64,000 nucleotides of DNA from assembly GCA_044892505.1 (NCBI GenBank), contig CM097882.1, positions 380,432,001-380,496,000 of the forward strand. The letters are read 5' to 3'. Under the pieces are notes generated by a model, which saw only the letters and a program-made list of their open reading frames with translations, was not told the DNA's origin and searched no databases. Source of the stretch: Schmidtea nova (taxonomy: Eukaryota). The position numbers and the translations under genes are program-made. Below, piece after piece: positions 23,284 through 51,480 of this stretch (position 1 is the stretch's first letter; each line of letters starts with the position of its first letter).

Positions 23284-24279
23284 CTAAGATATAGATATCA
23301 ATAAAAATTACATGAATGTTTAAATTTTTAATGATTTTATCAGTTAATATCAAAAATTCCATTTATTGTAGTAGAGGAATGCTAGCCAAATGAAGCCAAA
23401 CATCGCAGAGACCATCACGAATTTATTTGCATATCCGTCTAAATTTTTTTTTAAAATGACGTTATTTAAATATAAAAATTTCGTAATTTTATAATTTTTT
23501 TCAAAATTATCCATTATAATTGAATAATTTTTGCGTAAAAATACAAAAATTACAAGATTTTTAAATTTAATATATTTATATTAATATTAAAATATCTTTA
23601 TTACATAATATCATATGCTGGGTTCATGGAGGGGTTAGATGAAAAATGCTCTAACAATGACTAGGGATCCCTCATCCATGATCATGCATAAAATTGCAAT
23701 TTTACACTCAAGCGCCCTTGATTAGTCCCCTATATAATCAAGTTGGTGATGCGCAGGGTGGTTAAACAATGATGGGCAGGTGAGCACTATCGCTAGTACT
23801 ACTCCCCATTTATGTTTACGGGTCCATTGCTGCCGTTAGAAGGACTTATGCTTTAATTATTTGCTTAGGTATTCCGCAAACATCTTTTTAGAAAACTTTA
23901 TGTTTAACATTGCGTATTCTGCGAGAAGTGTTCAAATCGAAATGCTCGCCTAATTATTTGTTATCTTGTGATATGATTTTATACTTTTATACTCCATTTA
24001 TCTAATTATTTGTCAAGTTACAGAATCCATTTAAAAGAACAATAACAATTAAATTATCCCGAAAATTTTATTTAAGTTTTAATTAATTCCGTAAAAACTC
24101 CAGCCGGAGGAAAAATCTCCGTCAATAATTCTTCTTCGGTCATCCGATGTAGACCATCTATTTGACTCTGTAATCGCTGAGCGAATAATTTCCTCTGTCT
24201 TCGCCGTTTCTGCCCAATGCGCTTGCGTTTCTGGTGCGCATTTGCCGTTGAGGTGGTTGAATTTGCTGCAGGAGCCGTC

Positions 24280-24654
24280 TCATTCCGACTTTCGATTAGA
24301 TCGGCGACATCCGTACCAATGGAATTTACAGTCTTCTTTTCTGATGTCCAAGCTTGATACGTAACCGGACGGATTTGCTCTAATATATGAGGCAGTTACG
24401 GAATGGAGGCATTTTCGGAGTTCTATCTTCGTAGCCTCCCATTCCATTTGGTAATCGGCTGCAGTCTGCTGGGCGCGTTCGGTTTTACTGATTTGCTCTT
24501 TCATCCTGGCCGGAGCAAACCAGCTTTTGCGCAAGTATGCAATCTGTGCCTCGGCTTTGATCAATTGTGCCTTGAGGAGACCCAATTCCTTGTCCTGGGC
24601 TCTCCGGATCCGCCACATCTTTTCCAATTCTCTCTGTATCAAATCGGTGGTCAT
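24280..24654 (-). pseudogene. 3' LTR copy of LTR-ORF B, frameshifted
   Basis: Matches 48764-49360 up to ...TASYI, then shifts frame at the 14-nt deletion. Confidence 0.7.
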
Positions 24655-24838
24655 TCTATAATTTATTTAGGATATTTACTTTATGATTAAATTATGTGAA
24701 AAATGAAAATCTGATTATAGGGTTATTAGGTTACGAATACGAACTATTAAAAACACAAAACAAAACTCAAAACAACAAAATAAAAACACCACTGAACATT
24801 AATATTTGAACACAATTTAAACATTTGTCAATCAGTTT

Positions 24839-25318
24839 TTATCTCCGAAACAAGCTATGTAATTCGCTGTTAATCGGCCTCCGACGAAGACGAGTCCAAG
24901 AGAATGAGGGTTGTCCTTTCTGGCACTCCTTGCCGAACGGTTTTCGTGGTAGAAATTCGTGTAGGCCTAGTTGACACAGTTCCCGACGAGGGATGTGCCC
25001 CCAATAAATTATACGGCTTGTCCGTCCCTCGGTGTTTTTGACCAATACGATCAATCGGCCAAACTTATTCGAGTACGGCCTTTGGGAAATCGGCCAGTTC
25101 GGTCCTCCTCGATAGGGTATTTGGTCGTTCCCTCCTGTCCATATCGAGAACGGGCATTTTCGGCCAAACCCATGTCGCCACTTATACATCTGGCAGTTGA
25201 GGGTTCGCAACACCGGTGCCGGTAGATCCTTGAGCTGCGAGATCTTTCCATTCTGGGTATCCCCTTGTTCCACATTCCGTAGTTGAGTTAATTGATTCAT
25301 AAATTCGGCTGTCGACAT
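24839..25318 (-). CDS. 3' LTR copy of LTR-ORF A (159 aa, unknown)
   Basis: One amino acid differs from the 49545-50024 copy. Confidence 0.55.
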   Translation of the reverse strand: MSTAEFMNQLTQLRNVEQGDTQNGKISQLKDLPAPVLRTLNCQMYKWRHGFGRKCPFSIWTGGNDQIPYRGGPNWPISQRPYSNKFGRLIVLVKNTEGRTSRIIYWGHIPRRELCQLGLHEFLPRKPFGKECQKGQPSFSWTRLRRRPINSELHSLFRR

Positions 25319-26661
25319 CTATATTACATTCATTGGATATAAAATATATGAGTTAACGGAGGGAATTTGTTGATAAATCATTTATACTGCATATAATCAC
25401 AAAAGTTACTTAAAAATAAGATTAATTTTATTTCTCTCCGCCGTGATCTACCACGGTAGGAATAAAGAGTTCATAATTAGTTCTGTGCTATATACAGCAT
25501 TCAGGAATATAGAATTTAATACAGATTTCCGCGCTATATACAGCGATCGGACTATAACTTGGGAACCGCGCCATATACGACGATCGGCCTATTTTTAGTA
25601 ACTAATTTAATTTGGATTTTCCGACGCATTCCAACGCGATCGGAATTTATCGATATTAAAATTTTGTAGGCGAGATGCTGATTCCGAATGAAATCGGACT
25701 TTGGACTGCGTTGGATTTTCTCATTTCAGCGAAATTATTCAAATTTATTTTATTTGTTGCTCACTGTTTTTCCATGCGGGAGGTTCCATTTCGATTCAAT
25801 TGACTAAAAATTTAAATGATGAGCATGCCATACCATGGGGTGTCCCTCCTTATCAATCCGCCCCCCCCCCGCATTCTCCCTATTTGGCCCTCGACTCTCG
25901 TCCGTTGTGCAACCCAGAATTAAATAATTAGTAAATGGTCTGTACTAGATTAAAAATTCAATCAAATTTTCTAAATAAAATTCTACATCTAACTAAATAT
26001 TAAAAAGGTTGAACCGCCATGTGAGACCGTGAGGCCCCACAACGACGACTCGGACTCCCTCGCCGCGTGAGCAGCATAGGAAGTATAGCTATATGCATTA
26101 AAATGTCAATATCAAAAATAAAATAACGTTTACATATAAAATTTTTAATTGAACAAAAATCATGGGTACATCATATAAAACAAAATAAAGAAATTACTTC
26201 CGTACTTGAATGTGTGGTTCCTTGTATGAAATTCTGTTTTTTTCAAAAAATCTCGTTGGGTTCAATGAAATATTACTTAAATCAAAGTTTAGTCTTGATT
26301 GTAAGTTAAAAGTAAAACGTCTGTTGTTGTGATTTTTGGATCGGTATTTATACTGATCCGTCTGGTTGGATTGACCAATCAGGATCAGGCGTCCATCAAA
26401 GTATTTTTATTATTTTATTCTAATCTAAACATTATTTTGTTTCCTTTTCCGGTTTCTCGCTGGGTGGTCCTGATTTTCCAAGTAATTAATTAATTATTTG
26501 CACTATTATTTTATTTAATTCTATCTTTTCTTATTTCAGGCCCCCTTTTGCTGTTGTTTACCGGTTTATTTTCAAAATTTCCTTTTACTGAAAATTTATC
26601 AAATATTATTTGTCGTTTTATTGTTATTTTTAATTTGTTTTTCTTGTTATTTTTATGTTTA

Positions 26662-26862
26662 TTATTTTCTTATTGTTTTGTGTTTTTGCTCTTTTATTGT
26701 GTTTTTGGGTGATTTGGCGGGCCCAACTTGGGTTTGTCTTTCCAATTCCTCCTGTTTTCGGTAATAGGCATGAATCCATATCCCAATCCGCTCCATGTGA
26801 TTTCTGATCATTTCGTCTTGATGTACGGTTACTTCTTGTAAGGTTACTTCTATATTTCCCAT
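26662..26862 (-). CDS. 66-aa ORF crossing the internal/3' LTR boundary
   Basis: Element-sense strand; TAG-AA-ATG start context shared with other accessory ORFs. Confidence 0.4.
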   Translation of the reverse strand: MGNIEVTLQEVTVHQDEMIRNHMERIGIWIHAYYRKQEELERQTQVGPAKSPKNTIKEQKHKTIRK

Positions 26863-26992
26863 TTCTATAATTACAGATAAAAAGAATATTTAGTCAGGTT
26901 TTATTTTTATTGTTTTTGATTATTTGTTTTTCATATTGTTTTATACAGTTTATTTACATGGTCACTTCCTTTATTACGCCAACCATCCTTTT

Positions 26993-28348
26993 CTATCCGT
27001 TTTTCTCATGCCTCTCCATCTCTATGTATAGCGTGTCTGCATATAGTCGCTCCCATAGGTTTTCTTTCCTTATAAACATTGGTTCTCCTGCTGCTAGTCC
27101 GCATTCTGTTGTTGGTTTTTCGCTCGTACTCGTATGTTTGCCTGTTTCAAAGAACTTTTCCACTGGTTTTCCTATACTTTTGATTCTTATAATGACTCCT
27201 ACTTTCAAGGGCCATTCTATTAGGTCATCGTATTCTCCTTTACATAACGAGAAAAATATTGACACGTGTGTTCCTTGTCCTCTTCCGTCTCCATTTGGGT
27301 ATACTTTCAATCTTATTTTAACCCCGTTTTTCCATAAATAAAATGGTGGGCTTATTACTGCTGTTTTCGTCATATTTCTGGCTTCTGCTAGTTTGTCTCT
27401 GAAATCTGTCACTTTCCATAGGTAAGGTGCGATTGGTAAATCCCTTCTTTCGTCAATTTCTCGTATTAGTTGATTATATTGTATTTTCATTCCTTTTCCT
27501 AATTCTTCTATGGCTATTATTTTCTTTTCCATTCTTTCGCGAGTTAGTTCAAACTGCTCTCTTGTTTCTAGTAGTAAACTCATCATTATCTTATGTGATT
27601 CTACTTCTTTTTCTAATTTCTGGATTGTCTGTTTCGTTTCTTTTGTCGTTTCGTTTGTCATTTCCACATGCGTTAGTGCTGCTTCTTCTAGGTGTTGTTT
27701 CATTGATTGCCGCGTCCGCTTTTCTTTGCATCCCTGTTTGTTATATGGACATTCTCTTGGTCTTTCGGTACATACTTTCCAATGTTCATGTAACTTTACT
27801 TCTGTTATTTCGCAATTGTTTGGATATTTACTTACATATTGTCTGCATACTTTCTCCTCTGTTATATTCAAGTGTTCCTCTTCGATTTTTCTCCTCGTTT
27901 CTCGAGTTTCACAATACTCGCATGCGATTTCTTCTTCTTTACATTCTTCCTTGTGTTGTTCTCTCTTCTTTAGAGTTATTGTCTGTTGGCATTTCTCGCA
28001 TTCGGCTCTCTTTTCCTCGCATTTTTCCATATGGTTTTCCAGATTACTTATTTGTCCTTGCCATGTACAAGGTGTATTTACGCACTCCGTTGTGGTGCTC
28101 ATAATTTCTCTTTGGGTTGCTTTGTCCGTTCTGGTTTCGTCCAACACTATTCTTCCTTCCTTACATTCTGGGCATGTTGTTATTCCGGTTGCGTCTAATT
28201 CTTGTATACATTTTGTACATATTCTACATCCACATATCGTTTGTCTGGGTTCTCGTAATAAATTGTTACACTTCCCGCATGTGAGCCTCTTGCTCCATTT
28301 TCTGTTTTCTAGTCTCAAAATTTTGATTATTCGTTCTTCTCTGTCCAT
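26993..28348 (-). CDS. TRAF: TRAF-family protein: RING, TRAF zinc fingers, coiled coil, MATH domain; intronless
   Basis: CGKCNNLLREPRQTICGCRICTKC...CPEC; YLWKVTDF...SPPFY...KVYPNGDGRGQGTHVSIFF...GEYDDLIEWP. Confidence 0.93.
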   Translation of the reverse strand: MDREERIIKILRLENRKWSKRLTCGKCNNLLREPRQTICGCRICTKCIQELDATGITTCPECKEGRIVLDETRTDKATQREIMSTTTECVNTPCTWQGQISNLENHMEKCEEKRAECEKCQQTITLKKREQHKEECKEEEIACEYCETRETRRKIEEEHLNITEEKVCRQYVSKYPNNCEITEVKLHEHWKVCTERPRECPYNKQGCKEKRTRQSMKQHLEEAALTHVEMTNETTKETKQTIQKLEKEVESHKIMMSLLLETREQFELTRERMEKKIIAIEELGKGMKIQYNQLIREIDERRDLPIAPYLWKVTDFRDKLAEARNMTKTAVISPPFYLWKNGVKIRLKVYPNGDGRGQGTHVSIFFSLCKGEYDDLIEWPLKVGVIIRIKSIGKPVEKFFETGKHTSTSEKPTTECGLAAGEPMFIRKENLWERLYADTLYIEMERHEKNG

Positions 28349-28440
28349 TTTCTACAATAATATATACATTCGACCTGTCATTTATTTTTGGTTTTTCTTG
28401 TTTTTATTTTTACATATTTACAATTTTCCGCTTTATTTAT

Positions 28441-28797
28441 CTATGGCTCATTCGTTGAATCTGGTTCCGCTTCGTTGTTTAGTCTATTTATTACCCAACT
28501 CATCCATCCTTCTTCGGATTCTTCTCTTTCTCCTCGTGTTAAATGGTTTATTTCTATTGCTTGTCTTTGATTGATATTGCTTATATTTTGATTTTCTCTG
28601 GTGAGCTCGGTTATCACTCTTTGTTGTTCTTCTATTCTGTGTAATTGTTCGAAACAGTTGTTATAACTTTCTGATAATAACATTTGTCTTTCCGCTAATT
28701 GGTTCTGTAATGAGTTGACTGTTCGTACTAATAAATCACATTGTGCTTTCCATCTCATAGCCATAGTTATTTCAGTTGTTTCGTCCTGTTCGGTCAT
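28441..28797 (-). CDS. 118-aa coiled-coil-like accessory protein, unknown
   Basis: Intact ORF between two element ORFs; heptad-like LQNQLAERQ...ITELTRENQ. Confidence 0.65.
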   Translation of the reverse strand: MTEQDETTEITMAMRWKAQCDLLVRTVNSLQNQLAERQMLLSESYNNCFEQLHRIEEQQRVITELTRENQNISNINQRQAIEINHLTRGEREESEEGWMSWVINRLNNEAEPDSTNEP

Positions 28798-28922
28798 TTT
28801 CTAAATTATATACATCATTTACTTTGCTTTTCTAGCTTTTTACAATTTTTATAATATCGATACCCATACTATTACGGTAATGCTTTGTTATTTACACTAT
28901 TATTTACAGTCATAATCCGCCC

Positions 28923-31900
28923 CTATACCATCATTATCGTCTTTTCCTCGTATCGTTCTTCATCTTCTATTTGTTTCCAGAATTCTTTACCTTTCGTTCT
29001 TCTTTGAAATTCTTTCTGTATCTCTTCTGGTATTTCTATTCTTTGCTTCATAATTTTAATATCTGGCCATTGTATGGCTGTCGCTTTGTTTCTCTTTCTG
29101 TATCTCCAATATATTATCATGCTTGTCGTCATTATCCCATATGCTATTAATATTCCTATACTGATTAATCCTATTACTGTTTTTCCACGGTTTGTTGCTT
29201 TGATTTTATTCTGATTCACTTTTATCTCATTTTGCGTTTGAGCCTCTGGCCTCTTCTCCTTCTGCACTTGACTCTTGACTTGGTTCATTACTTCTTGTGT
29301 AGACCAATGGCGGTTTATTAGTTGTTTGACGTTATTTTCTTTTGTTCGGTTTTCCATGTTTCCTGGTTCGATCTGTTGTTGTAGTTTCTCTGAGATCTGA
29401 TATAATCCGCATTCTGGTTTTTCTGAACCTTTTCTGGTGAAGGTACATATCGCGTATGTCCTATTTACTTCCATTTTCTTTAATTCGACTTTTTCTTTAT
29501 TCTTTATTTCTTTACGGTGGGTTAGGTTGTCTTCTTCCCCTTCTGGGTTATGCTTTGTCCAACATATTCCTTTAACTGTTTGATCGAGTCCTGTTATTGT
29601 CAGAGTTCTTTCTGTCTTTGTTAATTTTTCTTCATCGAATTTCAGTATCTCTCCTTTTTGGAATGTCTTGCAATGCTCTATTCCCTCTTGGATTCCTCTC
29701 TCCCAGATACATATACTTCCTTCTTCATTCATTTGTATTTCTTGTATTTCGATTTCCTTGTTTGTTTGTGATTCGTCGCTTGTCTGAACTTGGTATTCCT
29801 TCCTTGGTTCGTTGTATGTTCCCCAGCATAGTTTGTTGCTGCTTGTTTTTCTTATTGTTATGGCCATTTGTTCTATTATTATTCCTTTGTCAATACGTTT
29901 GGACATTGCTATTATTAACGCTATGCATATGACATCTTGTTGGGGTGATGCTCCTTCTCTCGTGTTATTTATGCTTCTCTCCCCTTCTCCTGGTTTATCC
30001 GTTGTGTTTCTTATCTGAGTTGCTGGTTGATCTATTGTGTTTTTGATTTCTTTCTTTGTTGGTTTTACTCTATACCATTCAAGTCTAGGCGTTTCATATT
30101 TTTGACATACGACTGTCTTAGGTAGCCCCGACTTCTTTTCCTTTTCTATTATGCATATCCGATGCATGATTCCTCTATCCATCCCTTCTATTCGTACTAT
30201 ATCCTGGTCGGATTTTCTGATTATGCATTTTAGTGGGTTATCTTTCCCAATTGGTTCATCCTCTCTATTCCAGCATATTTTCTCGACCTCCTGGACATTT
30301 ACTATTTTTATCCCTGCTTGTAGGTTTGTTGCTTCTTCCCTATTGATTAATGTCAATATTATTGTTAGACCCAACCATTTTGAACTCTGCGGTAGGCTTC
30401 TGGTTCGCCTTTCATATTTTTTCTCTTCTCCTTTAATCTCTTTTATTTCCTTGTCTTTGTTGTTCATTCCTAGTTTTGCGATTTTTGCTTCTTTCTTACT
30501 CCTGGTCGGTTTTGGTTCTTCTCGTACTTCTAGTATTTCGACTCCATGGCTTGTATTATCTATATTTAGCCATTGGGTTGTTGATTTTCTTGGGCTTATC
30601 TTGCGTATCCATATAGTTGATAATGCGATTATTACCGGTATGGTCGCTGTTAATATTCCTAAACCAATTAGTTCTTTAATTTCTTTATTCTCGTCTGTTT
30701 GTATAGATTCGCTTTGGTTGAACATTATTCCGTATTGTCCCTTTAGTTTTCTCATTAATTGTTCTCGTTCCTCTTGCTTTCTTTCGACTTCTTTGATAAC
30801 TTCTTCAGGTGTCCATTTTGCCTGAGGGTCGGTTATTATTTTCTCTGCGTCCATTTGTTCGTTCGTTTGGCTTAGTTCCTTGAATTCAAGTTTCCTTGTT
30901 ATTCCTTTTGATGTTGCGTTTGCTGGTGTATAGTAGGTTTCGCATCTTTCTTGTTGGTTTCCCAGTGCGTCCATTTTTTCTATTGCACATACTTCATACT
31001 CGCTATTAAATTGTAGTTTTTCGATCTTGATTTCTTTATTTGTTTTTCTGCACTCTCTTGATTGTCTTCTTATATGTTTCTGGACTATTATCCAACATAT
31101 TTCTGATGTTTTATTCTCTATTTTCCATAATGTCAGAGTTGCTGATGTCTTTTTCTCGGGTTTTGTCGTAACTTCTTGGCTTATCGGTTGTTTATTGTTT
31201 TTAAAGGTAGTGGTGTACTTCGGTTTTCCTTTGTTTCGTTGTCTTCTTTTATTTTTTCGTGTTAACGTCTTAGTTCTTGTTCCGGTTGAAGTTGTATATA
31301 TTCCGCATTCTAGGTCGTTTATCGTTATCTGATCATTTTTCTTTACCAAACATATTTCGTAGGTTTGTTTACCTTCTAAACCTTTTATTTGAATCGTCGT
31401 TGTTCCTGTGTTTGTTTGACATTGTGGTGTCGTTCTTTTATTTACTTCTTTTTCGTACTTCCTCCAGCATACTCCTTTCACATTTGGTTCTATCTCTTTT
31501 ATTTCTAATGTTATGTTTACTTTCTGCTTGATTTGTTTATTTCTCTTCCTCGTTCTCCTCCTGAACTTTATTACTTCTCCAGGTTGGAATGTTTTACATT
31601 TTGTGGTACCTTTCTTGTTTGTCTCTTTTTCTAGTAGGCATAGTTTGTATGTCTTATCTGCTTTTACTTCGGATACTTTAATTACTTTATTCGTTGTTGG
31701 TTTTCGACTTTTCCTTATTTCATTTACGCCGATTTCCTCGTCATTCCTCGCCCAACATTTTATGTTAGTGTTCTGTGTATCTTCCACTTCTGTTATTGTC
31801 ATAGTTTCAATTTCTATTCCTTCCTCTAATCGTTTTATTATTATTAGTATGAGTGCTAAGCATAATACTTCCATTTGGTAAGACACTCTTTCGGTTTCGT

Positions 31901-32015
31901 TTGTGGCAACTCTTGCTTCGGGCCTCTTTATTGTAATTCGTATAGTTGGTGTTGTTTGCTTATCTATTGCCTGGGGTTTTTGTTTTCTGTTCCCTGTGTC
32001 TCTGTTCTTCCACAT
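28923..32015 (-). CDS. 1030-aa membrane protein with six FN3-like repeats and several hydrophobic segments
   Basis: Repeated about 90-aa unit (I.I...[IV]CW...I.I..L....Y.[IV]C...C..[YF].T); TM-like LIGLGILTATIPVIIAL and VIGLISIGILIAYGIM; continues a unit that starts at the end of pol. Confidence 0.75.
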   Translation of the reverse strand: MWKNRDTGNRKQKPQAIDKQTTPTIRITIKRPEARVATNETERVSYQMEVLCLALILIIIKRLEEGIEIETMTITEVEDTQNTNIKCWARNDEEIGVNEIRKSRKPTTNKVIKVSEVKADKTYKLCLLEKETNKKGTTKCKTFQPGEVIKFRRRTRKRNKQIKQKVNITLEIKEIEPNVKGVCWRKYEKEVNKRTTPQCQTNTGTTTIQIKGLEGKQTYEICLVKKNDQITINDLECGIYTTSTGTRTKTLTRKNKRRQRNKGKPKYTTTFKNNKQPISQEVTTKPEKKTSATLTLWKIENKTSEICWIIVQKHIRRQSRECRKTNKEIKIEKLQFNSEYEVCAIEKMDALGNQQERCETYYTPANATSKGITRKLEFKELSQTNEQMDAEKIITDPQAKWTPEEVIKEVERKQEEREQLMRKLKGQYGIMFNQSESIQTDENKEIKELIGLGILTATIPVIIALSTIWIRKISPRKSTTQWLNIDNTSHGVEILEVREEPKPTRSKKEAKIAKLGMNNKDKEIKEIKGEEKKYERRTRSLPQSSKWLGLTIILTLINREEATNLQAGIKIVNVQEVEKICWNREDEPIGKDNPLKCIIRKSDQDIVRIEGMDRGIMHRICIIEKEKKSGLPKTVVCQKYETPRLEWYRVKPTKKEIKNTIDQPATQIRNTTDKPGEGERSINNTREGASPQQDVICIALIIAMSKRIDKGIIIEQMAITIRKTSSNKLCWGTYNEPRKEYQVQTSDESQTNKEIEIQEIQMNEEGSICIWERGIQEGIEHCKTFQKGEILKFDEEKLTKTERTLTITGLDQTVKGICWTKHNPEGEEDNLTHRKEIKNKEKVELKKMEVNRTYAICTFTRKGSEKPECGLYQISEKLQQQIEPGNMENRTKENNVKQLINRHWSTQEVMNQVKSQVQKEKRPEAQTQNEIKVNQNKIKATNRGKTVIGLISIGILIAYGIMTTSMIIYWRYRKRNKATAIQWPDIKIMKQRIEIPEEIQKEFQRRTKGKEFWKQIEDEERYEEKTIMMV

Positions 32016-41428: not shown

Positions 41429-41452
41429 GTCGTATGGTTGTGGTGGAGTCCT

Positions 41453-44400
41453 TTATTTGGTTTCTCTGGGTGTTGTCTCAGATCGTCTCGAACTTGTCCC
41501 TGGCGTTGGTACTGATTTCATCGGGCTCGGCGTACTTATACTTCCGTGTGGTTTATGGTTTTCTTCTTTACGTTTTAATGGTTGACCCGCTATTGCTTCT
41601 ACTGTCAAGGTATTCATGAGGTCTAGTTGTGCTGGCGTTATTCCAATTTCTAAACTGTTATCTAATGATCGTCCTTGGTGTTGTAGATGGAATGGTGGTT
41701 CGTATCTCAATTTCTTTTTGATATCTCGAATTTTTTCTGCTATTCCTACCCACAATTCCTCCTTATCCTTGTTTGGGTATATTATTCTTAAATGTACTTT
41801 CTGTGGAATTTCCTGCGAGAATTCTTGGTTTCTCCATTTCCTAATTACGTGGTCTAGTTGTTCCGGGCACCACTCGTTAACTCTTTTATATTCCGCGATT
41901 GCTTTTGCTACTTTACGTAAACATGTTATATCTTCTCCATTAACCACGAAAAAATCTGCGAGACCTTTTATTAATTTTCTCTTACCGTGCGCATTAGTTT
42001 TCAATATTTCGACAAATTCTTCCGTTTTTTGCTTTTCCCTTTCTAACCACATGGCCGCTGTTTCTGGTCCATCTAGGTCTATTGGCGTAGCTTTCCTTGT
42101 TACCATGCAAACTCTTCCTATCTCTGGTTCGCAGTCATCTTCTATTCCTCTTTTATATTCTTCTTCATATTCCCCTTCTTTTGGTTCCCAACATTTTCCT
42201 TTCTCGTTCCATTGTTTTTCTACGGGTGTTCGTATTCGTCTGTTGAGATTGAGTTCTTCTAATACATTTTCCCACTCTGGCCAAATTCGCCAATTTCGAT
42301 AAATTTCTACTATTTGTTGTAATTTGCGCACGACTTCTTTCCGTCGTTCCCGTTCTCTTTTCTCATCTTTAGCAGTTTCCCTTGGTGTATCGTCCATTCT
42401 GCTAACGTGGATTGTTTGGTGATTATCCCATATACCGATTTTATATAATCGTCTCTCATCGTGATCCCATAATACATGTTCGTTGTATTGTATGATTATG
42501 TCGTCTTCCCATTCGTCTTCTGGTTCTCTTTGCACTAGTGTCTCGTTAATGACATTTATTAATTCTTTAATGGTGCAATCCGCTACCACTTCAATTTCTT
42601 TGGTGTCCTCATTAGGTAATTCTACTGAAATTTTTAGATCTGTTATTTTCCCTTGTCTAAACATTGTTTTTCCCATTTTTGCGATTAATTTGTCGTGTGA
42701 GATCTGTGACCATCTCGTGTGGCTTGTGTCACGTATGCACTCAATGCATCGTTTCAATTTCTCGTATTCGCTTCTCATTAACTCTTTTCTATGTTTTTTG
42801 ACTTGTGGTATGATTTGTTCTATCAGGGAATTTAGATTCTTTCGTAAGACTCGTTCTTTCTCGTATTCTAACCGAGGTTTTATTCTCCTTTCGAAGCACG
42901 TGTTTGCCTCCCTTGCAACTTCTTGTAGGTTCTCTTCTTCCTTTTCATCGCATATTGATAATAGGGTTATTTCTCCTGGCCATATACCTGTTTCTACTAA
43001 GTGCGTTCTTTTCTTTACGAGTCTATTCTGCGAATAGATGAATTTGTTTTTGTATGAGCTCCCTAGTCTATCCTCTACCCATCTGTAGATATCGTCTGTA
43101 AATGGAGTTTTAATCCAGATTCTTGGTGTAGATGTGTTTATTATTATTGAGATGGTGTAATTGAGGAGTGGTTCCTCTATTAATTTCCCTACGTATCGAT
43201 TTAACATGTCTACTTCCCGGTCTTGTAACCATTCTTTGTAGTTCATTTGTAATAATGCTTTCATGAATTTCCGATATTGTTTCTTGTCCATGAACTCTTC
43301 GTTATATATTACTTCTAGCGAGTTATCTAGTAATTTCTGGATTTCGTCTACTTTCATCTGTGTAGGTTCTGAGGTCTTTATTACTTCTCTCTCTTTATTT
43401 TCGTCTTCGGATTCATTTAATATGTCTCCTGCTAGGCTACTGATATCACTATCTTCTTCTTCATCGGAGAACTCTCTGGTGGTATTTCTTAGCATATTAA
43501 TATGTGCTGTTTGGTTCGTTTCCCCTTGTGTATTCTCCGTTGGTTTTGTTTTGTTTTTGCTGATTTCTGGTGTTAGTTCATTTTTGTCCTCCATTAATTC
43601 GACTTTTCCCATTTTCTTTCCCAACTCGTCTATTTCTTTTAAACGTCTTCTTATCATTTTTCCTTCAAATATTCGCCTGATTCGGGTTTCGTGACGTATT
43701 GGTGGTGGAATTTCTTCTGGTTCTATTTCTTTAATAATCATCACGTTTCTTTTTGTTTCTACTACTCCCAAGTTTTCCCATATGTCCGTTAATTCCAACT
43801 TTACTTTTGGCGCACCTTCTATTTGTAAGAACGCTTCTCTGGGCAGTTTCGTTACTCCCGGAACCATCTGGTTTACTTTGTTGAATAATATTCCCACTTC
43901 TTCTTTTACGTTATACTGGAATCTAAACACGGATTTGCTGGGCATGATTACCATCATTCCTCTTTTCCAACTCTCTTTCCTCTCTTCCTGGTTTATCTCA
44001 GTTTCCACTTCCTTTTTTATTTCTTTTTCTACTTCCTCATCTTTTTGTGTTATTTCTTTTCGACTTTCGTTGTCGGTTGGATTCGGGTTTATCGAATTTA
44101 TTTCCGGTGTGGTTTCTTTCTCGTAGTTATCTGTTTGCTTTGTTGCTCTTAGCATGTTAATTCTTAGAGGTTGTCGTTCTCTTTCTTGTTGTTTTTGTTC
44201 ATCCTCTCTTTGTATTCTTGCCCATTCCTGAGCGTGTCGTGCCTGACTTTCTCGATTTAATCGTTCGTTTTCGCTTTCTATCTTTCTCATCATGCTAATT
44301 TGTTGTGGATTGATTTGCGGATTTCCTCTCGCCGTGTTGTTTATCAGTTCCGTCAGCCTTTGAACTTCTTGCATCAAATGAATTTCTTTGGTGGTAGTTT

Positions 44401-45952
44401 TGTTCTGATTATTGTTATTGTTGTTTTGTTGGTTTCCATAATCTGGTCGGTTTACGGTATTTACTTGATTTCCGTAATTTGGTCGGTTCCCATTGCTCTG
44501 CCAGTTTCCTCGCTGATTACTTTTTTGTCCGCAATTTCTTGAATAGTGACCAGGTCGTCCGCAATTAAAACAGATTATTGTAGAACATCTGCTTTCCGAG
44601 TGTCCTTTAACTCCACATTTTCCGCAATTCGAATTTTGATAGCATTCTTGCTGCCAGTGTCCCAACTTCCCGCATGTTTTACATTGTTTTGTTTGTCTTT
44701 GAGGGTTGTAATTGTTTTGGTTTTCAAAGTTCTGCACTTTATTTCCTTCATTTCTTCGTTGAGGGGGTGGTCGGTTTAATTGTTGCGAATTTGGAATGTG
44801 ATTGTTGAGATTTACCTCTGGTTCGGTTTGCGCTGTGTCCATGGCTAAGTAAATTCTGCCCTCACTTCCTATCATGTGTAATTCGAATCGGTTAGCTGTT
44901 TCTAACGCTTGATCAATGGTCTTGCATCCTTGGCATCCAACTTGCGCTCTTATGTCAGGTCTTCTTAATCCTCCTATGAAGATGGCTGCCATTAACTCCT
45001 CGTTTATTGGACCTCCATCCTTGAATACTGATTTTGCTAATTTTTTCAGTTCGCTCGCGTATACCGCGTTAGATTCATTCATCTTTTGTTTCCTCATTGA
45101 AAATTCTATGAATGCCTCGCTTAGCACTTTATTTATTCCAAATGTTTGTTGGAAAAAATCCTTTATCGCTGTCCAGCTTGTAGGTGGATTGGTACCATTT
45201 TTCGCTTCCAAATATAGGTCCAATGCACTATCTTTCAAATATAACTGAATTCTGCTTACTGTTGTTTCCGCTTTCCACTTGCATACTTCTACGAATATGC
45301 CAAATTCTTTTAAAAAGGTTTCTAATTTACTCGCATCTCCGTTAAACGGTTCTCCTGAAAATTTATCCTTTATTTCTTCTCTTGGTTCACCCATTTCAAT
45401 TCCGCTGTCTTGAGTTATTTTACTTTCGTTTCCCCTTGTTTCTAGTTTGTTGTTATGTTCGTCTTCTGTTTCACTCGAGCTTGAATCGCTTTCTGTTTCT
45501 CTTATTACTTCGTTATCTGATATTATACTTTCGTTATCACTCTCGTTGATTTCTACCTCTGGTTCTACCTCGTTTTCTACTTCTCCGATATTATCGTTGT
45601 TAGTTTCGTCGGTTTCTCCTTCTTGTTCTATCTCGTGTTCTATTTCTTCGATATTCTCGTTGTTAGTTTCGTCGCTTTCTATTTCACTTGCTTGGTTCTC
45701 CTTGGATTCGGCTTGGTTTTCTTTGTTACTTGAGCTGTTGCTTACTATTGACAATTTATCGTTTTCGATAATCGATTTATCTCTTATTATTTTCCTCGCT
45801 TTACTCCCTTGTGGGTTCTTGTTGTTATCCTTGCCGGCTTTCTGCTTTTTTGTTGATTTTGTTGTAGTACTAGTTTTGTCTTTTTTGTTAATATTGCTGC
45901 CGACTTTCTTTTCCGTTGGCTTTATTACGACACTCTTTGCTCCTTTTCTCAA
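41453..45952 (-). CDS. gag: 1499-aa extended Gag: charged N-terminus, capsid, three CCHC knuckles, about 1000-aa extension with ubiquitin-like repeats
   Basis: FNGDASKLETFL...W...LYLKDSALDLY; CKTCGKLGHWQQEC, CGKCGVKGHSESRC, CFNCGRPGHYSRNC (about 44530-44685); first ATG at 45394. Confidence 0.9.
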   Translation of the reverse strand: MRKGAKSVVIKPTEKKVGSNINKKDKTSTTTKSTKKQKAGKDNNKNPQGSKARKIIRDKSIIENDKLSIVSNSSSNKENQAESKENQASEIESDETNNENIEEIEHEIEQEGETDETNNDNIGEVENEVEPEVEINESDNESIISDNEVIRETESDSSSSETEDEHNNKLETRGNESKITQDSGIEMGEPREEIKDKFSGEPFNGDASKLETFLKEFGIFVEVCKWKAETTVSRIQLYLKDSALDLYLEAKNGTNPPTSWTAIKDFFQQTFGINKVLSEAFIEFSMRKQKMNESNAVYASELKKLAKSVFKDGGPINEELMAAIFIGGLRRPDIRAQVGCQGCKTIDQALETANRFELHMIGSEGRIYLAMDTAQTEPEVNLNNHIPNSQQLNRPPPQRRNEGNKVQNFENQNNYNPQRQTKQCKTCGKLGHWQQECYQNSNCGKCGVKGHSESRCSTIICFNCGRPGHYSRNCGQKSNQRGNWQSNGNRPNYGNQVNTVNRPDYGNQQNNNNNNQNKTTTKEIHLMQEVQRLTELINNTARGNPQINPQQISMMRKIESENERLNRESQARHAQEWARIQREDEQKQQERERQPLRINMLRATKQTDNYEKETTPEINSINPNPTDNESRKEITQKDEEVEKEIKKEVETEINQEERKESWKRGMMVIMPSKSVFRFQYNVKEEVGILFNKVNQMVPGVTKLPREAFLQIEGAPKVKLELTDIWENLGVVETKRNVMIIKEIEPEEIPPPIRHETRIRRIFEGKMIRRRLKEIDELGKKMGKVELMEDKNELTPEISKNKTKPTENTQGETNQTAHINMLRNTTREFSDEEEDSDISSLAGDILNESEDENKEREVIKTSEPTQMKVDEIQKLLDNSLEVIYNEEFMDKKQYRKFMKALLQMNYKEWLQDREVDMLNRYVGKLIEEPLLNYTISIIINTSTPRIWIKTPFTDDIYRWVEDRLGSSYKNKFIYSQNRLVKKRTHLVETGIWPGEITLLSICDEKEEENLQEVAREANTCFERRIKPRLEYEKERVLRKNLNSLIEQIIPQVKKHRKELMRSEYEKLKRCIECIRDTSHTRWSQISHDKLIAKMGKTMFRQGKITDLKISVELPNEDTKEIEVVADCTIKELINVINETLVQREPEDEWEDDIIIQYNEHVLWDHDERRLYKIGIWDNHQTIHVSRMDDTPRETAKDEKRERERRKEVVRKLQQIVEIYRNWRIWPEWENVLEELNLNRRIRTPVEKQWNEKGKCWEPKEGEYEEEYKRGIEDDCEPEIGRVCMVTRKATPIDLDGPETAAMWLEREKQKTEEFVEILKTNAHGKRKLIKGLADFFVVNGEDITCLRKVAKAIAEYKRVNEWCPEQLDHVIRKWRNQEFSQEIPQKVHLRIIYPNKDKEELWVGIAEKIRDIKKKLRYEPPFHLQHQGRSLDNSLEIGITPAQLDLMNTLTVEAIAGQPLKRKEENHKPHGSISTPSPMKSVPTPGTSSRRSETTPRETK

Positions 45953-46564
45953 CGGGATTACTTTTGTATACTCAATTTTCCTGTCCTATCTCTTATCGTT
46001 TTCTGATTCTTCTTGCTTGATTGATTGATTTGATTGATTTGTATGTCTAAAATACAAAGGTCCTCAACGATACATTATTGTTATCGTCGCGCTTTTATTC
46101 CCTTTCTTTCGGGATTACTTATTACCGGGTTTTCATTATTTCCCAATTCCCAGATTCCCCTTTATTTTTAGTCTATTTAAATTATCTATAGACTGGTCAC
46201 AATTATCTATTTATGTCGTAATAATTATCTATGTTTTATCAAATCAATTACTTTTCCCACAGTTTCCCAATTGTTTTGGTCGCTCGAGCGCTCTAATTCC
46301 CTGAGTCTTTCTGACTCGTTTATCATTATTTTATCATCTCTATTCATTGTTCCCTGCTAGCAATCGTTTTACTCATTCTGCCGGTTGCTCCGGTCAGCTC
46401 AAATCTCCACTATTCTCCTTGCATGCTTTACTTAAGGTTGCATAATCAGCTTTACTCGCATTCTCTTAACTACTGGTGCGCACTACTCTAAATCTCGTCG
46501 ACGATTACACTATGGGTCTATATTCCCCCTGTTACTATTTATCCGGATATCTCTATAATTCACT

Positions 46565-46821
46565 ATGGCTCTTTTGGCCTCAATTTTATATCTCCCATGG
46601 CTCTATTGGCCTCAATTTAATCTCTTACATGGCTCTATTGGCCTCAATTTAATCTCTTACATGGCTCTATTGGCCTCAATTTAATCTCTCAAATGGCTCT
46701 CTTGGCCTCAATTTAATCTCTCAAACGGCTCTATTGGCCTCAATTTTAATCTCTCAAATGGCTCTATTGGCCTCAATTTAATCTCTCAAATGGCTCTATT
46801 GGCCTCAATTTAATATCTCCA
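46565..46821. repeat. Tandem array, 8 x 32 bp
   Basis: ATGGCTCTATTGGCCTCAATTTAATCTCTCAA-like units start at 46565, 46597, 46629, 46661, 46693, 46725, 46758, 46790. Confidence 0.95.
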
Positions 46822-46861
46822 TAACGCCTAGCTAGGTCATTCAATAAGGCTCGTTGGCCTC

Positions 46862-47037
46862 AACCCTTTTTTTCAAGGGACAAACCGCTAATAACCCTTT
46901 GTTTCAAGGGACAAATCTCCTAACCCTTTGTTTCAAGGGACAAATCTCCTAACCCTTTGTTTCAAGGGACAAATCTCCTAACCCTTTGTTTCAAGGGACA
47001 AATCTCATAACCCTTTGTTTCAAGGGACAAATCTCCT
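46862..47037. repeat. Tandem array, 6 x 29 bp
   Basis: AACCCTTTGTTTCAAGGGACAAATCTCCT units start at 46862, 46893, 46922, 46951, 46980, 47009. Confidence 0.95.
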
Positions 47038-47516
47038 AATTTTACTTAACCGGTTAATCACAATTCCCTACTTCGCTAGCGATTAATACTTCTCAGCTGA
47101 GTTATAACTACTTCTATGCGAGCTGACTATGCACCTTTTATTCTTTCAAAAATTGTCATTTATCTCTTTATTCTATCATAACTAATTCCTGATCAGTCTG
47201 CTTCAACTTTTTATTTATTTTTCTTATGCGCGCTTTACTCCATCAAGATTTCCCTATCTCTCTCCCCAACCAAAATATACAAAAAGATCGCGTTGGTCCA
47301 TTAATGCAGGATGTGGTGATCAATCACATCACAAAAACTTTTCAACATTTGCGATGGGCCCCTTTCTATACACCTTGAATAAGTTGATCAATCGGTACCT
47401 CCCAATGGATTCTTATCGGACTACTTTGTAGTAGCTCAAAAATTATTTAAATACAACGATTGTACCCATGATTTCATCATTAATAAACCAATAAAACTCC
47501 ACTTAAACATTATTTA

Positions 47517-47978
47517 TTATAAATATACAATAATTTTATCATCAATCATCAGGTTGCACATAGGACATAGGTCGCGCTTGCTGGCACATATTTTACAAAA
47601 ACGAAAATGTCCGCAAGGTAAAAACATAATTTGTATCTCCCTATCCTCACATATATAGCACTGTCGGTATTTTTTCGCTGCTTCTACCCCTTGCGCCCTC
47701 CATCGATTGTATGTTGAGGTTAATCGTTGTTCTATTTGCCTGCACTTAAGGTTTAATTCTGCATTTTCTAATCGTGCTCTGTACCATTTGTAGCGGGTCT
47801 CTATGTCGATTTTTCTTGTTCTTTCCGTTATCTTTATTAATTCATCCGTTTCCTCGGTCTGTGTTGTGGGTTCCTGAAATTCAATCTCTCTAAATCGGTT
47901 TATCTTCTTGCCAATCGTTCCTAATGTTTCGCTTTCTGTGTTGAGGAATTCTTCGATTTCTTTCAGTTTTTCCTCCAT
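47517..47978 (-). CDS. 153-aa protein with a C-terminal IAP-type RING finger, no BIR
   Basis: CYICEDREIQIMFLPCGHFRFCKICASKRDLCPMC...IIVYL-stop. Confidence 0.85.
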   Translation of the reverse strand: MEEKLKEIEEFLNTESETLGTIGKKINRFREIEFQEPTTQTEETDELIKITERTRKIDIETRYKWYRARLENAELNLKCRQIEQRLTSTYNRWRAQGVEAAKKYRQCYICEDREIQIMFLPCGHFRFCKICASKRDLCPMCNLMIDDKIIVYL

Positions 47979-48283
47979 TTACTGAATAAATAATTGTTTT
48001 TAACTTTGTTATTTTTATCATTTCTAAAGTAGTAATATGTTTCGCTTTGTATCTTTTGATATTTATCAATCCTCCCCGTGTTTCCGACAATTGTCGTCCC
48101 GACAAATTATCTATGCATGCATTTAATTTTTAACTTCACTTTTGTTCACTGCCATGTTGTTATTTTAATTTTTATACAATAATTTAATTATAACCTTTCT
48201 GTTTTTTATTAAATTAATTGACACGAGCATTTTAAACTTCTCTGCAGATTTTACATTTACATTTTTCCGATAAAACGAAGTTG

Positions 48284-48301
48284 ATCCCGACTGAGCCCCC
48301 A
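48284..48301 (-). promoter_or_regulatory. Primer binding site, tRNA-Pro-like
   Basis: Minus-strand TGGGGGCTCAGTCGGGAT, 6 nt after the LTR CA; 15/18 match to the MLV-type Pro PBS TGGGGGCTCGTCCGGGAT. Confidence 0.8.
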
Positions 48302-48763
48302 AATTTATGCTGGGTTCATGGAGGGGTTAGATGAAAAATGCTCTAACAATGACTAGGGATCCCTCATCCATGATCATGCATAAAATTGCAATTTTACACT
48401 CAAGCGCCCTTGATTAGTCCCCTATATAATCAAGTTGGTGATGCGCAGGGTGGTTAAACAATGATGGGCAGGTGAGCACTATCGCTAGTACTACTCCCCA
48501 TTTATGTTTACGGGTCCATTGCTGCCGTTAGAAGGACTTATGCTTTAATTATTTGCTTAGGTATTCCGCAAACATCTTTTTAGAAAACTTTATGTTTAAC
48601 ATTGCGTATTCTGCGAGAAGTGTTCAAATCGAAATGCTCGCCTAATTATTTGTTATCTTGTGATATGATTTTATACTTTTATACTCCATTTATCTAATTA
48701 TTTGTCAAGTTACAGAATCCATTTAAAAGAACAATAACAATTAAATTATCCCGAAAATTTTAT

Positions 48764-49360
48764 TTAAGTTTTAATTAATTCCGTAAAAACTCCAGCCGGA
48801 GGAAAAATCTCCGTCAATAATTCTTCTTCGGTCATCCGATGTAGACCATCTACTTGACTCTGTAATCGCTGAGCGAATAATTTCCTCTGTCTTCGCCGTT
48901 TCTGCCCAATGCGCTTGCGTTTCTGGTGCGCATTTGCCGTAGAGGTGGTTGAATTTGCTGCAGGAGCCGTCTCATTCCGACTTTCGATTAGATCGGCGAC
49001 ATCCGTACCAATGGAATTTACAGTCTTCTTTTCTGATGTCCAAGCTTGATACGTAACCGGACGGATTTGCTCTCTGAGCTCTTTCTCAATATATGAGGCA
49101 GTTACGGAATGGAGGCATTTTCGGAGTTCTATCTTCGTAGCCTCCCATTCCATTTGGTAATCGGCTGCAGTCTGCTGGGCGCGTTCGGTTTTACTGATTT
49201 GCTCTTTCATCCTGGCCGGAGCAAACCAGCTTTTGCGCAAGTATGCAATCTGTGCCTCGGCTTTGATCAATTGTGCCTTGAGGAGACCCAATTCCTTGTC
49301 CTGGGCTCTCCGGATCCGCCACATCTTTTCCAATTCTCTCTGTATCAAATCGGTGGTCAT
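48764..49360 (-). CDS. LTR-ORF B, 198 aa, coiled coil with a basic patch
   Basis: Intact; KRKRIGQKRRRQRKLF; minus-strand AATAAA next to the stop. Confidence 0.6.
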   Translation of the reverse strand: MTTDLIQRELEKMWRIRRAQDKELGLLKAQLIKAEAQIAYLRKSWFAPARMKEQISKTERAQQTAADYQMEWEATKIELRKCLHSVTASYIEKELREQIRPVTYQAWTSEKKTVNSIGTDVADLIESRNETAPAANSTTSTANAHQKRKRIGQKRRRQRKLFAQRLQSQVDGLHRMTEEELLTEIFPPAGVFTELIKT

Positions 49361-49544
49361 TCTATAATTTATTTAGGATATTTACTTTATGATTAAATTA
49401 TGTGAAAAATGAAAATCTGATTATAGGGTTATTAGGTTACGAATACGAACTATTAAAAACACAAAACAAAACTCAAAACAACAAAATAAAAACACCACTG
49501 AACATTAATATTTGAACACAATTTAAACATTTGTCAATCAGTTT

Positions 49545-50024
49545 TTATCTCCGAAACAAGCTATGTAATTCGCTGTTAATCGGCCTCCGACGAAGACGAG
49601 TCCAAGAGAATGAGGGTTGTCCTTTCTGGCACTCCTTGCCGAACGGTTTTCGTGGTAGAAATTCGTGTAGGCCTAGTTGACACAGTTCCCGACGAGGGAT
49701 GTGCCCCCAATAAATTATACGGCTTGTCCGTCCCTCGGTGTTTTTGACCAATACGATCAATCGGCCAAACTTATTCGAGTACGGCCTTTGGGAAATCGGC
49801 CAGTTCGGTCCTCCTCGATAGGGTATTTGGTCGTTCCCTCCTGTCCATATCAAGAACGGGCATTTTCGGCCAAACCCATGTCGCCACTTATACATCTGGC
49901 AGTTGAGGGTTCGCAACACCGGTGCCGGTAGATCCTTGAGCTGCGAGATCTTTCCATTCTGGGTATCCCCTTGTTCCACATTCCGTAGTTGAGTTAATTG
50001 ATTCATAAATTCGGCTGTCGACAT
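49545..50024 (-). CDS. LTR-ORF A, 159 aa, unknown
   Basis: Intact in both LTRs; TAG-ATG start context. Confidence 0.55.
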   Translation of the reverse strand: MSTAEFMNQLTQLRNVEQGDTQNGKISQLKDLPAPVLRTLNCQMYKWRHGFGRKCPFLIWTGGNDQIPYRGGPNWPISQRPYSNKFGRLIVLVKNTEGRTSRIIYWGHIPRRELCQLGLHEFLPRKPFGKECQKGQPSFSWTRLRRRPINSELHSLFRR

Positions 50025-51480
50025 CTATATTACATTCATTGGATATAAAATATATGAGTTAACGGAGGGAATTTGTTGATAAATCATTTATACTGCATAT
50101 AATCACAAAAGTTACTTAAAAATAAGATTAATTTTATTTCTCTCCGCCGTGATCTACCACGGTAGGAATAAAGAGTTCATAATTAGTTCTGTGCTATATA
50201 CAGCATTCAGGAATATAGAATTTAATACAGATTTCCGCGCTATATACAGCGATCGGACTATAACTTGGGAACCGCGCCATATACGACGATCGGCCTATTT
50301 TTAGTAACTAATTTAATTTGGATTTTCCGACGCATTCCAACGCGATCGGAATTTATCGATATTAAAATTTTGTAGGCGAGATGCTGATTCCGAATGAAAT
50401 CGGACTTTGGACTGCGTTGGATTTTCTCATTTCAGCGAAATTATTCAAATTTATTTTATTTGTTGCTCACTGTTTTTCCATGCGGGAGGTTCCATTTCGA
50501 TTCAATTGACTAAAAATTTAAATGATGAGCATGCCATACCATGGGGTGTCACTCCTTATCAATCCGCCCCCCCCGCATTCTCCCTATTTGGCCCTCGACT
50601 CTCGTCCGTTGTGCAACCCAGAATTAAATAATTAGTAAATGGTCTGTACTAGATTAAAAATTCAATCAAATTTTCTAAATAAAATTCTACATCTAACTAA
50701 ATATTAAAAAGGTTGAACCGCCATGTGAGACCGTGAGGCCCCACAACGACGACTCGGACTCCCTCGCCGCGTGAGCAGCATAGGAAGTATAGCTATATGC
50801 ATTAAAATGTCAATATCAAAAATAAAATAACGTTTACATATAAAATTTTTAATTGAACAAAAATCATGGGTACATCATATAAAACAAAATAAAGAAATTA
50901 CTTCCGTACTTGAATGTGTGGTTCCTTGTATGAAATTCTGTTTTTTTCAAAAAATCTCGTTGGGTTCAATGAAATATTACTTAAATCAAAGTTTAGTCTT
51001 GATTGTAAGTTAAAAGTAAAACGTCTGTTGTTGTGATTTTTGGATCGGTATTTATACTGATCCGTCTGGTTGGATTGACCAATCAGGATCAGGCCGTCCA
51101 TCAAAGTATTTTTATTATTTTATTCTAATCTAAACATTATTTTGTTTCCTTTTCCGGTTTCTCGCTGGGTGGTCCTGATTTTCCAAGTAATTAATTAATT
51201 ATTTGCACTATTATTTTATTTAATTCTATCTTTTCTTATTTCAGGCCCCCTTTTGCTGTTGTTTACCGGTTTATTTTCAAAATTTCCTTTTACTGAAAAT
51301 TTATCAAATATTATTTGTCGTTTTATTGTTATTTTTAATTTGTTTTTCTTGTTATTTTTATGTTTATTATTTTCTTATTGTTTTGTGTTTTTGCTCTTTT
51401 ATTGTGTTTTTGGGTGATTTGGCGGGCCCAACACATATATTGATTCATACAATTATTACACAATACCAATTAATTAATTA

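Follow-up and report, generated by a model that had tools for sequence, protein, structure and literature searches.

How a scanning ribosome could reach at least seven genes on one 28-kb unit is the question raised by a locus of Schmidtea nova (GenBank assembly GCA_044892505.1, contig CM097882.1, positions 380,432,001–380,496,000). This 64,000-nt stretch, hereafter the window and the source of all coordinates below, holds on its minus strand a Burro-type giant gypsy long terminal repeat (LTR) retrotransposon, assigned as such by its architecture and domains. Burro elements are among the largest retrotransposons known. An initial annotation, made from the letters alone, had noticed a splice-acceptor-like YAG 0–3 nt before the ATG of every accessory open reading frame (ORF), and had proposed a polycistronic transcript resolved by alternative splicing to a shared leader or by spliced-leader (SL) trans-splicing. 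The YAGs are well supported as 3′ splice acceptors by a roughly ninefold enrichment, by conservation of the AG and by their persistence across diverged families; from these sequence features we infer splicing at the YAGs. The reading that is favoured here, to which we give slightly better than an even chance, is that one message per gene would be made by cis-splicing a short LTR leader to one of eight alternative acceptors. The predictions that follow from it are exact to the base, namely one donor, eight acceptors, and an AUU start.

Acceptor-like sites before the accessory genes

The coordinates were rechecked, and the six YAG-N0–3-ATG contexts were found on the minus strand exactly as described. 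In the LTR, TAG (50027–50025) stands directly before the ATG of the LTR-A ORF (159 aa; site and ORF at 49545–50027), a TAG|ATG context that is present twice (50024 and 25318), and TAG (49364–49362) is followed by A-ATG and the LTR-B ORF (198 aa; 48764–49364), the stop of which is overlapped by AATAAA. The RING ORF (153 aa; 47517–47984), with AATAAA at its stop, is preceded by CAG (47984–47982) and TAA-ATG. At the other end of the element, TAG with AAA-ATG precedes both the coiled-coil-like ORF (118 aa; TAG at 28803–28801, site and ORF at 28441–28803; AG kept in 25/25) and the TRAF ORF (451 aa, compared with 458 aa in five sister copies; TAG at 28354–28352, site and ORF at 26993–28354; AG kept in 26/26). 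The sixth site, TAG (26867–26865) with AA-ATG, opens a 66-aa ORF (26662–26867; AG kept in 26/26), which had been taken for a gene of its own and is the start of a 353-aa ORF cut by a deletion of ~1.8 kb.

The ATG at 32015, assigned to an "FN3" ORF, lacks a YAG, and the view of this ORF as a frameshifted continuation of the polyprotein was confirmed: a sister copy has a single 5,491-aa frame. This ATG is not a start: gag, env-pol, and "FN3" together make up a single polyprotein. The label FN3 itself had no Pfam or PDB match. The statement that every accessory ORF has a YAG stands in a looser form: when the 189-aa ORF of sister copies is counted, a strict YAG is found in six of seven and NAG in seven of seven. 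The start of the 189-aa ORF reads AAG-NN-ATG in 12 of 20 sister copies and TAG-N2–3-ATG in the other 8.

When the 40 nt preceding each of the six ATGs were shuffled, the mean number of YAG matches was 0.49, and 0/100,000 shuffles reached five or six. A YAG was found 0–3 nt before 62/466 other ATGs in the coding parts of the element, 9/118 in its non-coding parts, and 117/1277 in the window flanks, as well as before the first ATGs of 4/24 and 2/36 flank ORFs and of 0/39 antisense ORFs. The overall rate at other ATGs was thus ~8–13%, and YAG is rarer before random ATGs than before accessory ATGs, not equally common.

The window element belongs to family A. Other families were obtained by hidden Markov model searches: F (67–77% nucleotide identity to A), G, E (a non-autonomous derivative of G), and the smaller lineage B/C/D. 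Accessory ORFs were defined by rule (sense ORFs of at least 100 aa, one LTR, polyprotein excluded), and one low-complexity frame was dropped, leaving 25 ORFs from six elements. A YAG was present at 0–3 nt in 18/25 and at 0–7 nt in 21/25 (nulls, 8% and 15%; 0/20,000 shuffles reached either observed count); without family A, the counts were 12/18 and 15/18. The RING orthologues in F and E also have a YAG 0–3 nt before the ATG. Accessory ORFs are often orthologues across families (26–54% aa identity), and because many of them are, the sites represent conserved sites and not independent draws. The four misses at 0–7 nt include the 189-aa ORF of family A, described above; ORF2 of the F LTR, in which a later, conserved Met is preceded by a YAG at 2 nt in 13/13; and the RING ORF of G, where TAG is found at the orthologous start and the ATG is lost.

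Conservation of the AG was followed in 55 newly fetched copies together with the earlier ones. It was kept at 139/140 aligned copy-sites in A, 85/85 in F, and 87/87 in E (six sites), in total 311/312, a sum that leaves out the last ORF of family E (7/13). LTR-A has a YAG directly before the ATG in 19/20 A copies, including subfamilies with ~40% aa identity and different N-termini, and LTR-B has one 1 nt before a homologous conserved Met in 20/20. In LTR-B and in ORF2 of the F LTR, the YAG before the conserved Met persists though upstream in-frame ATGs vary. As a sequence-level test of the putative acceptors, divergence among the LTR ORF variants is stronger than the columns within a family.

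The motif might instead be a start-codon context or an upstream in-frame stop, with no splicing and with the ORFs reached by scanning, re-initiation, or internal entry; at four of the six window sites an in-frame stop does lie within 3 nt of the ATG. Among the 18 positive sites, however, six are CAG and nine are out of frame, the linkers vary while the AG persists, and the donor, the ATG-free leader, and the polyprotein acceptor described below would go unexplained. We regard this explanation as most improbable.

Predicted leader, promoter-like motifs, and donor-like site

Promoter-like motifs were found in the 5′ LTR (51049–51083, minus strand): an ATTGG box (51083–51079) and TATAAATA (51056–51049), to which a promoter function is ascribed by prediction. 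An ATTGG and TATA pair occurs at LTR position ~350–400 in families A and F. With the start placed from the TATA, a leader exon of ~120 nt without ATG is predicted at 50902–51025; the leader is ATG-free in 19/20 A copies, for which the chance is 0.14 each. It would end at a predicted major splice donor, GGAA|GTAATT (50896–50901), that is conserved in A LTRs. From this donor to the first acceptor, 877 nt hold 23 ATGs.

GTAA[T/A]T was present at TATA+131 to +157 in 20/20 A LTRs (null, 0.10 per copy). In family F, AAG|GTA or CAA|GTATGG was present at TATA+99 to +117 in all 15 LTRs found among 20 copies, AAG|GTA accounting for 13 of the 15 (null, 0.078). The donor-like sites are kept amid a region where 43–48% of columns carry shared variants. 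Two host donors were seen, CAG|GTAATC and CAA|GTAATC. The leader itself is hypervariable between the conserved promoter motifs and the donor, with four types in 20 A copies and eight types in 15 F copies, and is also variable in E. Words spanning the leader-acceptor junctions gave four chance matches only in the genomic sequences that had been retrieved. The LTR leader was also considered as a mimic of SL RNA (GTACGG and an Sm-like tract); this candidate was rejected, as GTACGG is absent from two A subfamilies, the fold is unremarkable (z = 0.23), and there was no Rfam match.

An apparent internal promoter in lineage B/C/D has the same order of signals: ATTGG, TATA, GTAAT at +90/+100, TTTTAG, and ATG. 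It could be argued from this that every 3′ accessory ORF has a promoter in its own spacer and that the YAG is a feature of the 5′ untranslated region (UTR), and the B/C/D spacers (~400 nt) do hold ATTGG, TATA, donor, and acceptor. The spacers of A, F, and E, however, are mostly 73–135 nt and lack the ATTGG-TATA pair, a TGTA pair within them (see below) is tied to the upstream stop, and an acceptor would still require a donor, so that internal promoters are very unlikely to account for the YAGs. The B/C/D elements are 15–17 kb, env-bearing, and have a 3,360-aa gag-env-pol frame; a single unannotated downstream ORF of ~470 aa lies behind the apparent internal promoter and an apparent 5′-UTR intron.

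Predicted polyprotein acceptor and start

In addition to the six sites noted initially, an acceptor-like TTTGTATTTTAG was found upstream of the polyprotein (46047–46058, minus strand, G at 46047). It is present in 5/5 A copies in which this region is retained, and F and G have it at the corresponding position. The last upstream ATG is 26–73 nt before it, and the 460–650 nt after it are ATG-free in all frames (0–1 of 2000 shuffles). The polyprotein frame is open for 34–197 codons before its first ATG (45979–45394 in the window, and at the same place in F, G, B, and C), and an in-frame A-n-n-ATT-G lies 2–5 codons from the start of the frame in A, F, G, B, and C. In the window copy this is AAA-ATT-G (45971–45979), the predicted AUU start of the polyprotein, 582 nt before the first ATG. 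Judged by this pattern, a conserved non-AUG (AUU) start is likely. B/C/D share the ATT, but no such polyprotein acceptor was found in them. An AUG supplied by the SL was rejected as the polyprotein start, as the frame differs among copies and families.

Spacers and post-stop motifs

The spacers of the 3′ arrays are 73–268 nt long, with a median of 113 nt (15 same-strand junctions, all <300 nt), and are A-rich (T, 17–39%). AATAAA was found within 80 nt in 10 of the 15, without a U-rich flank, and in 7/8 ORFs of the 5′ cluster examined it lies at the stop or no more than 50 nt from it; no null was computed for either count. Between LTR-A and LTR-B, a GU/U-rich tract (49452–49502, minus strand) would fit a poly(A) downstream element, and in family F AATAAA and a similar GU-rich tract are found at the place corresponding to this gap.

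A paired motif follows the stops: TGTAAATA after the polyprotein (28889–28908), and TGTA pairs after the 118-aa ORF (28407–28422) and after TRAF (26943–26958), all on the minus strand. TGTAHATA was found 14–18 nt after 12/15 stops in the 3′ arrays (shuffle mean 0.7, maximum 4), and at least two TGTA after 14/15 (shuffle mean 3.4, maximum 8). The motif is absent after 5/6 stops that have no next ORF and was found at 1/18 distinct host TRAF stops. It is conserved (1/132 columns variable, p = 1.6e-4), and the TGTA pair keeps a constant distance from the stop before it but not from the ATG after it. One intronless host TRAF gene has a TGTAAATA...TGTAAAT pair 11–24 nt after its stop. The pair is likely a 3′-UTR protein-binding element; we take it to resemble a Pumilio-like consensus. 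TGTAAATA also resembles a forkhead site, a point in favour of internal promoters. A reading of the pair as a CFIm/UGUA signal is weakened, since UGUA is reported, in the accessible part of the source, to be absent upstream of planarian poly(A) signals (PMC5068929).

The spacers might themselves be short introns, with GTAAAT as donor and the YAG as acceptor, the removal of which would put a stop and the next start ~20 nt apart for re-initiation. T|GTAAAT does fit a donor hexamer, and the implied size of 50–250 nt is plausible. The base before GT is always T, though, and reverse transcription should lose such introns, yet variants, with gaps counted, make up only 0.4% of the cells in the TGTA columns (copies as for the AG sample); the LTR, RING, and polyprotein acceptors would also be unexplained. 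We give this explanation hardly any chance of being correct.

Host trans-splicing and spliced-leader fossils

The genome gave 968 exact matches to the tail of Schmidtea SL1 (query from the supplement of PMC10899757) and none to the control, from which the host is a dugesiid planarian of the Schmidtea kind. The 968 SL copies lie mostly within another LTR family that captured host mRNA 5′ ends. In this separate, gypsy-like family of ~7 kb, the LTR consists of ~100 nt of its own sequence, a complete SL1 exon, and stitched pieces of spliced host mRNA, and the two LTRs agree in this (99.9% identity). For two of the captures a source gene was identified: the junction with the SL falls precisely on an AT-rich AG of the host gene, and an intron has been spliced out. 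One host trans-splice site, TAG|AAA-ATG, is identical to the coiled-coil and TRAF sites. By its sequence, the family seems to acquire the 5′ ends of trans-spliced host mRNAs by way of the leader, and it would serve as a fossil library of host trans-splice sites; no such SL-in-LTR capture family was found in the literature search.

An ATG lay 0–3 nt after the SL in 389 pattern matches, a number that includes amplified lineages and double counts, and in 5/25 distinct fossils of an unbiased sample; the 389 matches also served as the control for the variable-gap pattern used in the search for SL-Burro junctions. The YAG-ATG geometry fits trans-splicing and any other acceptor alike, because both use the same signal. 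No SL1-Burro junction was recovered in four pattern searches of the genome (0, 0, 65, and 1 matches): none of the 65 was a Burro start by eye (six look-alikes were compared), and the single match was unrelated. There was also none among 99 aligned SL junctions (60 distinct). The searches cover SL1 alone and need a capture to have occurred, and trans-splicing is therefore lowered only modestly as an explanation. Four DNA-like runs from one study showed no splice-type ends at the acceptors among the joints listed (15/21 and 15/20) and are uninformative on expression; their DNA-like character is seen in flank-spanning contigs and in one Tn5-adapter-like loose end. A frequent joint at 47980–48074 has non-splice ends.

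These data bear on an operon, in which the leader donor would serve the 5′ genes only, and the 3′ array (coiled-coil, TRAF, 353-aa, and 189-aa ORFs) would be cleaved after each stop and SL trans-spliced at the next AG. The host does trans-splice, at a site like those of coiled-coil and TRAF among others, and the fossils with an ATG close behind the SL agree with it. The spacers are close to the median of 99 bp in S. mansoni (PMC12582326) and the peak of ~100 bp in M. lignano (PMC8629364), as given in the accessible parts of these papers. The TGTAHATA after most array stops, conserved and mostly absent where no next ORF follows, also fits, and C. elegans Cer1 is described as having an SL1-spliced subgenomic RNA (PMC3315495, in part). 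On the other side are the lack of SL-Burro junctions, weak as this evidence is; the A-rich spacers, which differ from the U-rich planarian poly(A) sites, where UGUA is reported absent (PMC5068929, in part); and a conserved donor-like cis site upstream of all acceptors, which may compete. Overall, an operon is possible but rather doubtful. In its full form, as a retroelement operon with a 3′ array of 4–7 captured apoptosis and signalling genes, in which paired TGTAAATA couples cleavage and SL capping while the AUU polyprotein is made on the LTR leader, it is held just as tentatively.

Proposed expression by a shared leader

Under cis-splicing from a shared leader, transcription would start near 51025, and the leader of ~120 nt would be joined from the donor at 50901 to one acceptor per molecule: LTR-A, LTR-B, RING, polyprotein, coiled-coil, TRAF, 353-aa, or the 189-aa one, which is deleted in the window copy. 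Splicing would remove up to 22–24 kb, and at least the 23 ATGs between the donor and the first acceptor. The first AUG after the junction would then be translated, except in the polyprotein mRNA, which would start at AUU. The 5′ genes would end at local AATAAA sites, and the A-rich acceptors may be weak enough to leave unspliced RNA, which would be kept as the genome. Messages spliced past the primer-binding site lose it and should not be reverse-transcribable. If the predicted sites are used, this one reading would account for the donor-like site, the lack of ATGs in the leader, the acceptor ahead of the polyprotein, and the fact that no spliced copies are seen in the DNA.

A shared leader also agrees with the donor-first rule, by which an upstream donor out-competes the SL (PMC4558846 and PMC8629364, accessible parts), the donor-like site here being conserved and placed ahead of every acceptor. 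Further, the SL ends in AUG, and its addition would bring a start codon in front of the AUU-type start of the polyprotein, a region purged of ATG. A low level of SL trans-splicing at Burro acceptors would be expected in a flatworm and is compatible with the shared leader. Flatworm acceptors are often used by both cis- and trans-splicing, according to the accessible part of PMC12582326, so a mixture of the two is likely. Of the initial interpretation, the acceptors hold at the level of sequence, the cis route has gained a donor and an ATG-free leader, and the SL route is possible, with no SL-Burro fossil among the searches above.

Several points weigh against a single shared leader. The last acceptors need introns of 22–24 kb that skip several acceptors, and the array spacers (median 113 nt) match flatworm operon spacing. 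The donor could serve LTR-A alone. The donor windows were set after inspection, and the copies are non-independent (4 A and 8 F leader types). The leaders of E and G are variable, with no single donor established for the E/G LTR, and 11/15 F leaders have an ATG near the 5′ end. Within families, the AG columns did not differ significantly from the spacer columns (1/34 vs 146/1723 variable columns, p = 0.21), because the spacers themselves are already conserved (8.5% variable columns vs 18% at four-fold sites). In the last ORF of family E, the fourth of the misses above, the TAG lies 17 nt before the ATG and is kept in 7/13. Finally, 9/24 host SL mRNAs are in frame with the SL AUG, i.e., they show no frame adaptation either, which weakens the argument from the SL AUG.

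Structure and state of the element

The element spans 23614–51432 on the minus strand (27.8 kb, with 3.1-kb LTRs) and is flanked by a 4-nt target duplication (TATG). The 5′ LTR (48306–51432, TG...CA) and the 3′ LTR (23614–26727) are 99.3% identical; the latter has second copies of the promoter motifs, the donor (26197), LTR-A (25318), and a frameshifted LTR-B (24654). The primer-binding site (48283–48301, minus strand), which we take to be of the tRNA-Pro type, has the same motif in family G. No tRNA genes were found in the 64-kb window. Tandem arrays of 32-nt and 29-nt units lie between RING and the polyprotein acceptor (46533–46843 and 46863–47068).

The polyprotein region (28923–45985, minus strand) is ordered, by Pfam and frames, as gag, env, protease, reverse transcriptase (RT), RNase H, integrase, ankyrin, and C-terminal repeats. 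Pfam matches in the long frames were a zinc knuckle, a Monjiviricetes fusion protein, protease, RT, RNase H, integrase, and ankyrins, the fusion protein (PF24664, E = 1.5e-70) lying upstream of RVP, RVT_1, RT_RNaseH, rve, and Ank_2. The BCL2-like domain expected before env in Burro elements had no Pfam or PDB match in the window copy; a weak match (PF00452, E = 0.011) was found in family B. The accessory ORFs of the window have RING (PF13920, E = 5e-12) and TRAF/MATH (PF22486, PF21355) domains. BIR-RING is not among the annotated domains of the window copy and was found only in the related family E.

The window polyprotein is broken by a stop (41455–41453), which splits gag from env-pol, and by a frameshift near 31,980, which splits off "FN3"; the unbroken 5,491-aa gag-env-pol frame was found in 1/6 sister copies fetched. 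The ~1.8-kb deletion, seen by comparison with a sister copy, extends into the 3′ LTR, truncates the 353-aa ORF, and removes the 189-aa ORF, the seventh accessory one. The 353-aa ORF is intact and followed by the 189-aa ORF in 3/6 sister copies; in 2 more of the 6, the 353-aa ORF is broken or the following ORF cut.

TRAF copies at 95–100% identity numbered at least 94 scored in the genome, and a homologue search with the TRAF protein gave four distant TRAFs only. Host MATH/TRAF genes form a dense cluster at about 405–455 Mb on one contig, some in tandem arrays. Family E, the non-autonomous derivative of a Burro1-like family, has lost most of the polyprotein; it retains a RING-like ORF on the 5′ side and, on the 3′ side, seven ORFs in an array, including TRAF and BIR-RING. 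Most of the 150 scored BIR matches share its 399-codon frame. In one family-F copy, the last ORF of family E comes after the 3′ LTR, which suggests recombination or nesting between families.

Comparison with known systems

Complex retroviruses (HIV-1, foamy viruses) and the adenovirus major late unit use one leader or major donor with many weak acceptors. The predicted organization here is like that of complex retroviruses in having one 5′ donor, an acceptor ahead of each gene, and an unspliced RNA as the genome; the predicted donor within R and the apparent internal promoter of B/C recall foamy viruses. It is unlike them in combining a gypsy-type RT with a mononegavirus-type fusion protein in a flatworm host, and in having eight acceptors over 24 kb, two of them in the LTR and most 0–7 nt from the start codon.

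Among transposons, the window element resembles the Burro and GYPSM1 elements of dugesiid planarians, which, in the accessible part of PMC6431247, are ~30 kb long and have multi-kb LTRs, a polyprotein of ~5,000 aa whose env part is placed in frame between gag and pol, ankyrin repeats, accessory functions of the RING/TRAF/BIR kinds, and tandem repeats. It differs from them in having an ORF of its own for TRAF, downstream in a 3′ array, and two ORFs in the LTR. In those descriptions, as far as accessible, no mention was found of splice donors, acceptors, or an AUU start. For one Burro accessory gene, BIR-RING, a protective effect on planarian stem cells has been reported (cited in the accessible part of PMC13465017). 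No paper was found in the literature search on expression of the Burro accessory ORFs or on an operon in a retroelement; the Burro1 paper and Grohme 2018 may cover it.

The gypsy element Cer1 of C. elegans is similar in that its subgenomic RNA undergoes cis-splicing as well as SL1 trans-splicing, at sites that are left unused in the 8-kb genomic RNA, but it is described as having one spliced product from one ORF and no accessory-gene array (PMC3315495, accessible part). Flatworm SL operons share the ~100-nt spacing, the YAG acceptors, and the start codon near the acceptor; unlike the present array, they lie outside retroelements, which have to preserve a full-length RNA, and cis-splicing is reportedly avoided at the downstream acceptors of these operons (PMC12582326 and PMC8629364, accessible parts).

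Burro elements, multi-acceptor splicing in complex retroviruses, and SL1 splicing of a gypsy subgenomic RNA in Cer1 are thus known. New, as features of the sequence, are the donor-like GTA site, the putative polyprotein acceptor with its ATG-free stretch and AUU, and the post-stop TGTA pair, and the feature is larger than first noted. If the prediction is true, each captured anti-apoptotic gene would be expressible on its own, even from non-autonomous copies, and the locus would represent either regulation in the style of complex retroviruses within the gypsy lineage or the first retroelement operon found in the literature searched.

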